In this document: positions 31,801 to 37,800 of the stretch, one piece after another
Position numbering within the stretch: position 1 is the first letter of the stretch
Layout of the letters: each line of letters opens with the position of its first letter
Assembly (NCBI RefSeq): GCF_037042905.1
Contig: NC_087251.1
Coordinates: 18,664,001 to 18,728,000, forward strand
Direction: 5' to 3'
Length of the DNA: 64,000 nt
From: Lytechinus pictus
Taxonomy: Eukaryota
The notes under the pieces: model-generated
Databases searched by the model: none
Told to the model about the DNA's origin: nothing
Seen by the model: only the letters and a program-made list of their open reading frames with translations
Made by a program: the position numbers and the translations under genes

Positions 31801-34800
31801 TTAAGCTTATATTAAAGATTATATTACAACTTTCATTTAAATCAGTTTTTTCCCTAGAATGCTTTTTGCCTTTTTTTATGGTTTAGCTATTTATAAAAAA
31901 AAGCGTAATAATTCTATCGTTCCCTTCCATAATTCTCATGTTTCTCTTTGTAAAAATAAAAAGTTTTATAGGGGGGTATTATGGACTTAAATTCTGTGGC
32001 GCTAGATCTAAATCTCTGCTTTCCCGTACACATATCTTTTACAATATGGTCTATTATGACTCGTTTTGTGGAATGTATACATGTAGATACACATCAGAGC
32101 TTGTAATAATGTCTAGACAATGTTACAAAGGGATGAAGGAAATGCTTAATCAATACATTTTTCATCATGTATAGGGTTTTCTGATTTTTATCTCTTAGCT
32201 TTGCTGCTATAGGGAGCTTATTGAGGAAATGAGAAAGTTCTGCATTGCTTCCTCCTACTTCCAATGGGAAATTTGTAATATGAATGATTGATTATTGAAA
32301 GATGATTTTAACAAGCTTTGTCTCCCCCAATTAAGCTTTACGCATCAAAGTATCTTGTTTCATATCTAAAAATATTTCACATTCGTGGTTGTGTTTGAGT
32401 AAGAGTGGGAACTATGACCGGAAAGGTCTTCAATAATAGCTTGATTATTTCAAATCTGGATAATTCATTGAGTAAACTAAAGTGACCATGACATAGCATT
32501 GGTATGGAGGTATTTATGGGTCAATCATGTGGACATGAGATCATTCCTGGTCTGGATAAGTATCTCATTTCACAGATAGTTTGATATGGTAAGCATAAGT
32601 AAAGGAGGGGTGGAAAGATGTGCCAAGTATCTTGTCACCGTGGTCATTGAGATGGGGCTTATCAGTAGACAATAAGTGCGAGAGTATATGAGGAAGATGA
32701 TGACAGTGATGTTTGCAGTACTGCTGTGACATCATGAGAAGCAAGGGGTACTCGTGACCCGTCAGGAATGGGGAGCATGCGTGCGTTTCTTCTCTAAATA
32801 ATTGATTTAATGGGGTAGATAACCCATGCGCATGGATGCAACTCGGTCTACGCTCTGATGTCTTGACAAAAAAGTGAACCCGTCGGTGAAGTTCGCTACT
32901 TCTGTCTTGTGATTCAACTACTGAGGTATTCAGAGCAGACGAGTGATGTTATCATAACACTTACTCATCAGCTGATGGATTATTGATGACTTGCGCTTGT
33001 CTTTAGAGCCAAAGTGACATCCATAAATTGGAAGTAGAGATAGTATTCTTTTAGAAGTGAAGGTTGGAAACTTTTCATCACCTTTTTAGCACCTCTTCTA
33101 ATGAGTTTGGTGATTTGATTTACTCAGAAGGAGCACAGCATGGCCTATCGAGGACAGGAATGTTTTAACTCTTTTAATGGAAGCAGAGCTGATGGTGGTA
33201 AGACAGTATCAAAGCTTACTGTTCAACTTGGCAGAAGCAATGGGAATGTAGCAACAAGTGGACCACAGGGTGGTGGATTAATGAATCAAAGAAAGCAAGT
33301 CAGCTTTGGCAATAATCAGAGCAGCAGACTGGGCGGAGATGTCAACGTCATAGGCGGCAGCAAAAACAAATCAGTGACGGTAGCACCCAAGATAGGCAAC
33401 AATTACACAGCAGATAGTGGCTGTTCGTGGGGCGGAGCTGAGGGTGGAAGTGGTAGTCAGAGTCGAGAAGTGGGATTAATCACGCCAATCAGGGATCACG
33501 AGAGATGCGTTAATGAGCAAGGATCCTGTCAGACCATCAGCATGTCAACAGACAACATGAATGCCATGTCGGATAATAATGATATGCCGGCGTTAGACCA
33601 AGGTCCTGCAGCCCCTTTCAATGAATCGTCAGCCATGCTGCCTGACATTGAAACCAACAAACTCCACCCTCGAGTCTTAAATGGTAATTCTGTCCATGAA
33701 GAGGATTCAAGTTCCATTAACAGCTCAAATGTAAGTAAGGTACAGTTTGAGGAACCTACTGTTATGAACATTGATCCGAGCTTTGAGAGTGCTGAAGAAA
33801 AAGCTAGAGCCTTAGCAGTAGGAGCGATAGAGAAAGCTCTTGCTTCACAGCTTGTATCGTCTGTGACAGAGGCAGCAGCTAAACTTGTGAGTGACGAAGC
33901 CAAAGAATCAATTGATGACAACAAGATGGATACCAAACAGTGCCAGGAAAATGGAGGTTTAACAGCAAATGAGTTTCCAAATTTATCTGACAGTAAACTG
34001 ATCTCCAGCTTGAATAATTTTGAAGAAATCACAGCTCTTCAAGAAAGTTCAACCAACTGCCAAGATGCAAATGCAAATGAAGTCTCTGATAAGAAATCTG
34101 TTTTCATAGAGAACAGCAATTTATCAGATAATGTGAATTCCAACAATAACACACAGTTACCACCAGTGCCGCCCAAACCAGCCAAAGGTCTGCCTAAACA
34201 ACCTGATGGTGCATCAGGACCAGAACCTAAGAACACTCTGCAACAACCTCCATTGCCAGAAGAACATGGTGAGGTGCAGGAGTTCTTCAGCTCTTCCCAA
34301 ATTCTCGTCTCGGACGACATTATCGACTGCCTACCTGAGGTTGAAGAAATGAGTAATGGAGCACCACCATCACCCCCTCTGATGGCATGTCCTGATCAAA
34401 CCTTAGCAGAGAGTCAAGAGCAACATGTTGGTGGCACTTCTTTGCCTTTGCCAGGAGACACAGAAGGTGAGCAAAAACCCAGCATTAATGAACCACAAAA
34501 CAATGAAGAAGAAAACAAAATGGATGTGAATAGCACTAAGGATATTAAGAATGAAATGACAGAAGCTACTAAAGAAAATGACATTGAAGATGCTGATAAA
34601 ATCATGGACAAAGCTGAAAGTGATGTCAAAGGGGAAAAAGAAGATGGTTTTATTACTTCTGATGTGTTGAGTAAGGAGGACTGTGCTATACATGCAAATC
34701 ACGTCTCTCAAGTACATGGCGATATCAAAGAAAATATCAAGGATAGTTCTGTAAGTGCTATAAATAACGATTCAAAAACCACCAATGTTACAGAAATAGC

Positions 34801-37800
34801 AGAAGACAACAAAAGGGCTGCCAAAGAGGAAGATGTAGAACAAAAAGATCACAATAAAGAAGTGAGAGAGAGTGTAGAAGTTAAAGACAGTATGAAACAA
34901 GACCAAGAGAATGTTTGCCAAGACAATTGCACGCTTGATGATAGCCTATCCATCCCTTCTCTAACAACAACATCGGCGTCTTCATCGACGGAGATAGGGA
35001 TGACGCAGATTCCATTATCGCCGATCTTTGAGGAACCAAGGTCACCGGCTAAGACAGATGATCATCTTGATCTGTCAAACACAAGTTTGTCATCATCCTC
35101 CCATCAAATAACTACATCCCCATCATCGCCAGAAAAGATGGACGTATCTGAAGTACCGGGCAGTGTGAGTGATGAGAGTGCTGCTGTCGCTACAGCAAGT
35201 ATTGAATTAGGAGTGGAAACTACTGGAATTACTGAAGCAAATGCAGATTTTATCGGGAAAGAGAACTTTAATGAAAATGAAGCAGAAAGCCAGCACAATG
35301 ATGAAACAGAAGGCAAGTACTTCTATAATTATTCATATTTTTTATTTGTCAACTTTGTTTGAATGAAAAGAGCAACAAGTAGACTCTTGTAGCATCTCAA
35401 ATCACTCTCCATTTGAAGGTATTCATTACACTATTATCATTGAATATCCAGGGGGCCGTTTCATAAAGCTGTTCGTAAGATAAGAGCGACTTTAAGAACG
35501 ACTGGTGAACCTTTCTTATGCGCTAAACCATCGCCAATGAATATACCATTTATCACAAGAAAGGATCACCAGTCGTTCTTAAAGTCGCTCTTAACTTACG
35601 AACAGCTTTATGAAACACCCACCGGTTGAGACAAATGTTGATTGAATCCCCCGTCAGACTTGGCTCTCATGACCCAAATTCACTAAAGTTTCTTAAAGTA
35701 TTACTCAGTGGTCATTTTTCAGTTTGTATCATCATTGGGAATTTCAAATTCTAAGGTGACCCGTCTTTTATCACATTTCTGAATGTAAATGGAATTTTTT
35801 ACATTTCAAATTACTACATATTTCACTGTATATTTCAATTATTGATTGTCTGTGTTTATGAAAGATTCTACATTTGATAAGAAAGTAAACATATTTTGGA
35901 TAGAACCATTTGTCAATGTCAGAGCTTATTACCCATTTCTTCCCCCCACCCTGTGTACTGACATGTATCTGAGACTTTTGTTGGCAGCCTTTACTAAAAA
36001 ATCATAACATCAGGATATAGGCCTACACACACTTGAACCTAAATCCTAGATCCAATTTACCATGATTTGATTTACATTGAACCCAAATTGAAAAGCTTCC
36101 TATAGATTTCAAATCACATTTGTGAACACACAGCTGTATTGGCATGCTTCTATTTCAGATGAACTCCCTTTTTTAGCTTAAATTTACTGATGACTGTCTT
36201 TTTCCGCAAGGGGCCTGCCTTTTTGTATTTATTTTGAAGGGCAATTTGATAGAATCTGGACTCTCTGGAGAGAATCATTTGAGAGAGTAGTTTTGTGTTT
36301 GTGAATTTTGCCATACTGATGAATGTTTTGTGTCTCTCATGTGTTGATCTGTTCGTTGGAGAGGAGTAATTTTTTTTTTACAAGATGACAAAGTTCGGAA
36401 GGAGATCTTTCAGATCAATGATACTGCTGTTTACTGCCGGTATGTAGGCCAATATATTTTCTAACTATTCTTTTACTAGGATTAATGTAAATATTACAAA
36501 AAAGAGTTGATTAGAGTGGGGCACCGTGGTCTAGTGGTTGCGACTATTGTCTTTCGATCAGAGGGACGTGAGTTCGAATTCCAGCCATGGCGTGTTTTCC
36601 TTCAGCAAGAAATTTACCCACATTGAGGGCAATGGGTACCCAGCAGGATTAATTCCTTGAATGCATGAGCGCCGAAAGGCAGCTGGAGCTAAAGCGGGGG
36701 TAATAATAATAATTACAATGTGCCTCGGAATAGATTATTTCAAGATAAATGGCGCTATATAAATACCTATTATTATTAGAAAATGACAAAAATATCAAAA
36801 GCTACCAAAATTACAAAGAACAACCAAAGAAAGAAACAAAACATATGTAACCTGAATATGGAGGAATTGCCCAAAACCCAAAGAAGTATAATTTCAGAAC
36901 AAGAATATAATGTTGCTCCTGAGGTTTCCGAGGTTTTTTAAAGACATTTTGCCAATTAGAAACTTATTTAAAAGATTTTGATTAAAAAAATTAAGCTTAC
37001 CATTTCCTTCTGCTTCACCTGATTACTTTATGAATGTACAATGAAACCTGTAAATTGTATCTCATTTAGTTCACACTCACTATTTGGGGCTATTATTTTA
37101 AGGCGAAAAAAGATTGATTCAAATGTTTTTTTTTTAAGGGGTGGGGTCAACATAATAGATGATTCATGCCAATGGGCTTGGTCTGTAACAGATCCTACAG
37201 AGAAAATGATATGCCATATTGGATCAGAGATCTTGATTGCCTGATAAGCGAGCTTCTCCAATACAGCTTACTGGCAGGAAATATATATTCATGTACGTGC
37301 CATATTATTAAATGTTGCGAACATTCATTGACCTCTCTGGCTTTTAAATACTTTTTAAAGAGAGAAGTATAATTTCAGAATAAGAATACAATTTTTTTAC
37401 TGAGGTTTCTGTTTTGTAAATTTGAGGTTCTCTACTGGAATCGTTTTTTGAAAGATCTTAAACTTAGTCTAACTTTGTGATATTTTGTACCTTTTATGAT
37501 AGTTTTTACTTAGCAAGGGATTTCATTCTAACTCTTAATTTCTCTAGGATTATTGGAAACTTTATTTCTTCATTCATTTGTAATAGATTTCATTGTGTGT
37601 ATATTTGGGGAGGGGGGCTTTCTAGAATTAAAATGCCCGCTGCTCCTGTATATGAAAAAGTCATTTGCCTTGAAATTTCATTATTTTATTATAATTAGTC
37701 TTTCTAATTAGAAATAAATAATAGCTAACCACCATTGAAAATTAGGAGCCTATATTTAGAAGCACACAATTTCATGTGATCCATTTGAACGCCACCCATT

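Follow-up and report, generated by a model that had tools for sequence, protein, structure and literature searches.

A conserved open reading frame within an intron of the Lytechinus pictus Ena/VASP gene is a probable alternative first coding exon that replaces EVH1

Ena/VASP proteins are regarded as being directed to their sites of action by the EVH1 domain, whose removal is used as a loss-of-targeting control. An Ena/VASP gene of the sea urchin Lytechinus pictus raises the question of what purpose is served by a very long open reading frame (ORF) lying in the intron that directly follows its EVH1 exons. The gene is contained in the window analysed here, a stretch of 64,000 nucleotides (contig NC_087251.1, positions 18,664,001 to 18,728,000; G+C content 34%), and all features below are on the forward strand and numbered from the first letter of this window. 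A first-pass annotation, made from the sequence alone, had proposed that the ORF serves as a first coding exon and is joined in phase 1 to the exon beginning at 42369, so that the product lacks EVH1 but keeps the proline-rich, EVH2 and coiled-coil half of the protein. This proposal is supported by the architecture of predicted proteins from Diadema setosum (P0010) and Amphiura filiformis (P0011 and P0017) and by contigs of two runs that stop matching the genome at the proposed donor, and we consider it probable that the ORF (33140–35312) functions in this way, as an alternative first coding exon. The open frame, its conservation and its splice-compatible end are directly established, as is the recurrence of this architecture among predicted proteins from two further echinoderms.

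The ORF extends from an ATG at 33140 to a stop codon ending at 35362 (740 amino acids), within a stop-to-stop frame of 747 codons (33119–35359). At the composition of the window the chance of 747 open codons is about 1e-24; the second-longest open frame across the window, in all six frames, is 169 amino acids, and in 500 shuffles of the ORF region no open frame ever exceeded 222 amino acids. The 812-Mb assembly contains one copy of the ORF (one match among 11 scored candidates). As the first-pass annotation had described, it is a 2.2-kb frame inside a 22-kb intron downstream of the EVH1 exons, this intron running from 20183 to 42368 (22,186 nucleotides).

Direct reading of the sequence around the start identified an in-frame TGA at 33116–33118, upstream of the ATG, and the frame of the ORF is therefore closed to any exon farther upstream. 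The AG dinucleotides between this stop and the ATG would give exon starts at 33128, 33131 and 33134 (all phase 0) and at 33139 (phase 2), with none in phase 1; a scan of 33119–33632 for a phase-1 AG preceded by a pyrimidine tract found none, the best candidate having pyrimidines at 10 of 20 positions. An acceptor-like site at 33090 (15/20 pyrimidines) lies upstream of the in-frame stop. The upstream stop, and the claim that the AGs before the ATG are in phase 0 or 2 with no credible phase-1 acceptor, had both been noted in the first pass and were confirmed by this reading and by the acceptor scan. With its own start codon, a closed upstream frame and no frame-compatible acceptor, the ORF has the properties of an alternative first coding exon.

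The other end of the proposed exon is equally well defined. After 724 codons and one base the coding sequence ends ACA GAA G/GCAAGTAC (a slash marks the splice site here and below), in phase 1, with the dinucleotide GC at 35313–35314 forming part of a GCAAGT donor (35313–35318) that follows AAG. Within 35200–35364 it is the sole phase-1 donor, GT or GC, whose consensus is usable. The acceptor at 42369 (ttttccag/CTCCAG) is also in phase 1 and is preceded by a long T-rich tract, and the donor of the second EVH1 exon, at 20182, is in phase 1 as well. GC donors form a minority class, found in about 1% of animal introns at most, and most have a strong consensus of this kind. Like other U2-type GC–AG introns, the one considered here combines GC at positions +1/+2 and a full AAG/GCAAGT consensus with a normal, pyrimidine-rich AG acceptor, tcttttctttttttttgcaaattttccag/CT; we found no respect in which it differs from that class, and the site at 35313 is in itself ordinary. 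The GAAG/GCAAGT donor and its phase match with the exon at 42369, as claimed from the first pass, can be read from the sequence; the isoform length of about 1040 amino acids given there is revised by our exon model to 1072, and the shared exon that begins at 42369 ends at 42426, not 42427.

Homologues of the 724-residue module encoded by this exon were found in protein searches. A word-indexed search returned two relatives, P0001 (755 amino acids; 64% identity across the full query) and P0002 (868 amino acids; 31% across 56% of it), and a profile search of 1,835,955,588 representative proteins gave exactly three matches at E ≤ 0.001. The third of these, P0010, is RefSeq XP_072171205.1, an 'uncharacterized protein' of 1012 amino acids from Diadema setosum. 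Its residues 2–667 follow the window ORF colinearly in three blocks (BLASTP E 5e-26, 2e-16 and 6e-12), and from residue 668 it continues as the C-terminal half of an Ena protein, with a proline-rich run, a KLKK motif and a VASP_tetra domain at 976–1011; no WH1 match was obtained in it at E ≤ 0.1. The joined 1072-residue model from the window aligns with P0010 as a single high-scoring pair (residues 7–1072 against 2–1012, E 7e-155), and the junctions correspond, being ...NDETE/APVQVPP in the window and ...KGTEE/APPRPQ in P0010. The two proteins share the order of the module and its conserved islands (KSVSKLTIQLGR, GGLIT..DH.R, an AIEKALAS helix and Q.PLSPI.EEPRS), the junction into 'APP...', an Ena C-terminal half that includes VASP_tetra, and the lack of WH1. 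They differ in that identity is about 33–46% within the three module blocks and the Diadema module is 667 rather than 724 residues long, with different linker lengths; XP_072171205.1 is moreover a computational prediction without a name or described function. The start methionine is aligned in four of four lineages, and six islands are invariant. Conservation, the absence of which the first-pass annotation had regarded as fatal to its proposal, is thus evident in P0001, P0002 and P0010. The junction is followed in P0001 and P0002 by G-M (GGN ATG), which is compatible with G/GTATG donors in these relatives, the third base of the glycine codon being unreadable from protein.

When the Ena half of P0010, followed by that of P0011, was used as the query, a comparable pair of predictions came to light in the brittle star Amphiura filiformis. 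P0011 (isoform X2, 588 amino acids, without WH1) and P0017 (isoform X5, 417 amino acids, with WH1) are encoded by a single contig. Between 'APPRPSPP' and the C-terminus 294 of their 301 aligned positions agree (98%, one 2-residue gap), whereas the sequences ahead of that point are unrelated; the switch of N-terminus therefore coincides with the exon boundary seen in the window. The N-terminus of P0011 is an acidic sequence of 296 amino acids ending ...DDTE, and the window exon ends ...DETE. The Amphiura locus therefore resembles that of L. pictus in that one gene gives rise to either an EVH1 N-terminus or a long, acidic, EVH1-less one, and the same architecture is present in the predicted proteins of both P0010 and the P0011/P0017 pair. 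Comparison of the window module profile with the 296-residue Amphiura N-terminus by hhalign detected no homology (probability 0.4%); judged by sequence, the latter may be an independent invention or may have diverged past recognition. Among 120 listed proteins, VASP_tetra occurs without WH1 in three: P0011, P0072 (an 'unnamed product' of an insect) and the lizard protein P0103. The last, Sceloporus undulatus ENAH isoform X3 (650 amino acids), has about 20 unique N-terminal residues followed by LERER repeats, and EVH1-less predictions are therefore not limited to echinoderms.

Transcript evidence from L. pictus itself is indirect and comes from four runs (X1, X15, X20 and X21) aligned to window positions 22600–42599. 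A contig of 1828 nucleotides from X1 matches 33513–35310 with 12 differences and then continues with 30 letters unlike the genome; it carries no unlike letters at its 33513 end, and X1 shows no depth in the unique intron bins flanking the ORF. A contig of 4141 nucleotides from X15 (depth 27.4) matches 31195–35310 and has 30 unmatched letters on the 35310 side. Among the contigs listed elsewhere in this intron, three have depth 2–3.8 and two repeat-adjacent ones have 14.6 and 28.6. The X1 and X15 contigs thus both diverge from the genome no more than two bases from the predicted donor. We infer that their tails represent a path entering the exon that is shared with the second EVH1 exon, 30 being k-1 for a 31-mer graph. 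As the ORF and the EVH1 exon both end in AG, the shared part would consist of AG plus 28 nucleotides of the exon at 42369, which explains why the match stops at 35310 and not at 35312.

Several points weigh against the use of the ORF as an alternative first coding exon. P0010, P0011 and P0017 exist only as computational predictions in RefSeq, and no annotated protein from any sea urchin besides Diadema was among the matches listed in the word-indexed, profile and Ena-half searches. The X1 and X15 runs are contig sets from different studies that are not on record as RNA, and among the runs listed there was none that is both recorded as RNA and holds the ORF. Runs X20 and X21, which are ribo-depleted RNA under the same species label and were sampled at about 6% (8.7 and 8.3 million records), had a depth of 0 across 31938–35272, indicating that the isoform is not expressed at a visible level in those samples. 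The contig evidence for a junction from 35312 to 42369 in L. pictus consists of the point of divergence and the number of unlike letters, so that use of the junction in this species is inferred. The X15 contig extends without a break for 1.9 kb before the ATG and thus marks neither the 5' end of the exon nor any promoter. Finally, the read-through tails of the P0001 cluster would mean an unspliced transcript if the contigs behind them are RNA.

These tails bear directly on the possibility that the ORF is an independent single-exon gene nested in the intron, translated to the stop at 35362 (740 amino acids) and never joined to the Ena exons. Such a gene would account for the 16 codons by which the frame runs past the donor, for the loose similarity of this tail to P0001 (GMYWLNCFISTVTFV) and for the P0001 cluster, in which all seven Logan proteins are 754–755 amino acids long and the three inspected (P0001, P0004 and P0006) carry the unspliced read-through tail. 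However, an ORF caller run on genomic contigs gives the read-through form anyway, and we therefore took the tails of this cluster as uninformative. P0010 fuses the module to Ena exons; the read-through tail is not conserved in P0002 or P0009, which retain only the G-M after the junction; and the X1 and X15 contigs do not extend into 35311–35362. Further, no AATAAA or ATTAAA hexamer occurs in 35313–36980, covering 1.6 kb after the read-through stop, compared with 1.67 per kb in the window, and a poly(A) signal belonging to the ORF itself was not found. We regard a nested gene as very unlikely. An internal cassette exon, made up of all or part of the ORF and retaining EVH1, seems to us very unlikely as well, even though a site at 34455 (gcctttgccAG/GAGACACAG) is in phase 1, in frame and preceded by 15/20 pyrimidines, and the start of the X1 contig, at 33513, lies within the ORF. 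Splicing to 34455 would insert 286 amino acids between EVH1 and the proline-rich region, an arrangement that would presumably resemble the large neuronal insert of vertebrate Mena. Yet it is the whole ORF that is conserved from the aligned methionine, including its N-terminal 430 amino acids; P0010 and P0011 have no WH1; the in-frame stop lies upstream, with no usable phase-1 acceptor near the start; and the 33513 end of the X1 contig has no unlike letters. A cassette form using 34455 could nevertheless coexist as a minor isoform.

The same protein could also be made without any intronic promoter, if transcripts from the canonical Ena promoter carried a 5' untranslated exon spliced past both EVH1 exons to an acceptor upstream of the ATG at 33140, for example the acceptor-like sites at 33090 (mentioned above) or 33128. 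The canonical start codon is itself preceded by an acceptor-like site, making a non-coding exon 0 probable. Neither of the points that can be set against this arrangement is decisive: G+C content and the observed/expected ratio of CpG rise from about 32500, and the X15 contig is colinear from 31195 into the ORF, passing 33090 and 33128 without interruption. We consider transcription from the canonical promoter unlikely but credible, and propose a promoter within the intron as a putative driver of the ORF exon, with a candidate 5' untranslated region and promoter zone at 32500–33139, where G+C increases from about 0.30 to about 0.44 and CpG observed/expected to about 0.6; an untranslated exon from the canonical promoter would leave the protein unchanged.

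With the ORF as an alternative first coding exon, transcripts containing it would start translation at the conserved ATG at 33140, and its GC donor (AAG/GCAAGT) would be joined in phase 1 to the acceptor at 42369 that is also used by the EVH1 exon. The product of 1072 amino acids would have EVH1 replaced by an acidic and almost wholly disordered N-terminus of 724 residues, with one conserved helix and five other islands, and its proline-rich region, EVH2 actin-binding part and tetramerisation coiled coil would be unchanged. By analogy with other Ena/VASP proteins, mixed tetramers with canonical Ena would be expected to form through the shared coiled coil, and the conserved motifs of the arm may provide localisation independent of EVH1.

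The module has a net charge of -71, and 39% of its residues are S, E, N or D. AlphaFold2, run on a 4-row alignment, gave a mean predicted local distance difference test score (pLDDT) of 38.2, with 673 of the 724 residues below 50, and the module is accordingly modelled as about 93% disordered. Pfam searches returned nothing above noise for the 724 residues (best match Pox_G7, E 0.4) and nothing for P0001 or P0002, and a look-alike search of the ESM Atlas with residues 1–420 gave no usable match. Conservation is concentrated in the six islands, a pattern within a disordered arm that is, on sequence grounds, the one typical of a carrier of short linear motifs. Island 1 (33200–33235, residues 21–32) is defined by invariant alignment columns and island 2 (33467–33553, residues 110–138) reads E.GLI.P..DH.R..N..GSC...S..TD. 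Island 3 (33791–33922, residues 218–261) is a conserved amphipathic helix with an invariant A/I/L/V pattern and is the only confidently folded part of the module; AlphaFold2 predicts helices at 218–235 and 237–261, with pLDDT 75–83 for residues 221–250. Paired small and hydrophobic residues at a 4-residue spacing make this helix a candidate AKAP-type element, fitting a permissive form of that motif, which might bind the docking dimer of the PKA regulatory subunit. Island 4 (34130–34180, residues 331–347), NVN.NNNT..PPVPPKP, fits PxxPxK, and its PPVPPKP presumably resembles a Sos-type SH3 ligand. Island 5 (34313–34378, residues 392–413) was recognised from invariant columns and the P0010 blocks, and island 6 (34964–35131, residues 609–664) reads TTT...TQ.PLSP...EP...D.S..SLSS. 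No FPPPP-type EVH1 ligand is present in the module sequence from the window. The relatives P0002 and P0009, which derive from ENA contigs, carry four tandem PPPVP..P.F.F.KEGE...E.D.KE units, one of them with an EVH1-ligand-like HFPPPPP; these units are absent from the window ORF.

Combining these motifs with the phylogenetic spread of the architecture, we can sketch a tentative and rather unlikely scenario, in which echinoderms would possess a second form of Ena that predates the split of urchins and brittle stars and in which an intronic promoter exchanges EVH1 for an acidic disordered arm. In urchins, the PPVPPKP SH3 ligand and the AKAP-like helix would then bring the actin-elongating EVH2 tetramer, whether pure or mixed with canonical Ena, to scaffolds of SH3 adaptors or kinases and not to FPPPP ligands.

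Alternative first exons, GC–AG introns and spliced Ena/VASP isoforms are all known kinds of variation. What would be new at this locus is the particular product, a conserved, EVH1-less Ena with a replacement arm of 724 residues, elsewhere represented only by unnamed predictions in two other echinoderms. No report of an EVH1-less Ena/VASP isoform or of an echinoderm Ena was found in those parts of the literature that our searches reached, where the slash in 'Ena/VASP' may hamper matching. Vertebrate Mena (ENAH) has splice isoforms, among them 11a and INV, as well as a large neuronal insert. The L. pictus locus resembles Mena in that alternative exons alter the targeting or regulation of one Ena/VASP gene with the EVH2 half kept; it differs in that the Mena variants are, as far as is known, internal cassettes that retain EVH1, whereas the isoform proposed here exchanges EVH1 itself. 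If the proposal is correct, the arm may target an actin polymerase independently of EVH1, and a natural, conserved EVH1-less isoform possessing the polymerase and tetramer half would offer a ready test of EVH1-independent targeting and of mixed tetramers, in sea urchin embryos that are tractable for mRNA injection and imaging. Given its GC donor and the label 'uncharacterized protein' in relatives, such an exon is easily missed or misread as a separate gene; as the first-pass annotation had remarked, gene finders restricted to GT donors would plausibly overlook the splice.

The remainder of the gene was modelled as a predicted chain of exons from splice sites and tblastn matches of P0010, and both the canonical chain (462 amino acids) and the chain beginning with the ORF (1072 amino acids) are open throughout, with no internal stop. 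The locus has the N-terminal hallmark of Ena/VASP, a WH1 domain (PF00568) above the curated cut-off, divided between two canonical exons: e1 (7643–7813), which holds the first half of EVH1 (E 1.4e-6, profile positions 9–61) and is skipped by the alternative isoform, and e2 (20011–20182), which holds the second half (E 7.9e-13, profile positions 62–109) and ends in phase 1. The ATG at 7643 is directly preceded by an acceptor-like sequence, ttccttggcag/C (window 7632–7645), from which it follows that the canonical mRNA probably has a non-coding exon farther upstream. The exons shared by both forms begin with e3 (42369–42426), which has a phase-1 acceptor and a GT donor and matches 'APPRPQ...' in P0010 and 'APPRPSPP...' in P0011 and P0017, and e4 (43761–43831), which matches 'YNQQRQPD...' of P0010 and is open in the joined model. 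A central proline-rich region followed by EVH2 motifs, again as in other members of the family, was recognised by comparison with P0010 in e5 (47942–48306; proline-rich core and G-actin-binding-like stretch, 65% identity, E 3e-39) and e6 (48804–48950; a Gly run, placed by the tblastn block after e5 and splice sites), the motifs of which we take to be the G- and F-actin-binding sites. Exons e7 (49512–49584) and e8 (50003–50078) were likewise placed by tblastn with P0010 and splice sites, and e9 (51731–51817) is the weakest call, made from frame, splice sites and loose similarity to P0010. Exon e10 (56704–56843; 70% identity to P0010) contains the start of the tetramerisation coiled coil, corresponding to VASP_tetra (PF08776) on 56660–56866 (E 7e-15; score 54.7 bits, cut-off 25.8), and the last coding exon, e11 (57601–57629), encodes AIKQELSRR and ends with its TAA stop codon. 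Among 11 Logan proteins retrieved, none was a close canonical sea-urchin Ena. Comparison of the Logan protein P0019 with P0018 from Apostichopus japonicus revealed a sea-cucumber-like Ena with a Ser/Pro-rich extension of about 100 amino acids before an intact EVH1, a further case of N-terminal variation in echinoderm Ena.

Just upstream of e9, a long microsatellite-like run at 51000–51450 encodes poly-His, poly-Thr/Ile or poly-Pro/Ser depending on the frame and yields spurious tblastn matches for a proline-rich query. Interspersed repeats in and next to the large intron (29270–29936, 35448–35623, 36559–36625, 40600–41100 and from 42489 onward) have very high depth in all four runs, with summed contig depth of up to 186,000; they have many loose ends and swamp the depth bins adjoining the ORF and the exon at 42369. 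Searches of the whole window with Rfam (gathering thresholds) and ARAGORN gave 0 matches each, and these repeats fit no Rfam family or tRNA. Near the upstream end of the aligned region, 22600–23126 is covered by contigs of X1 (depth 53.8) and X15 (120.4) and by raw RNA reads (about 7–10), and adjoins a 140-codon open frame at 22146–22565; this segment is an expressed element, possibly a repeat.

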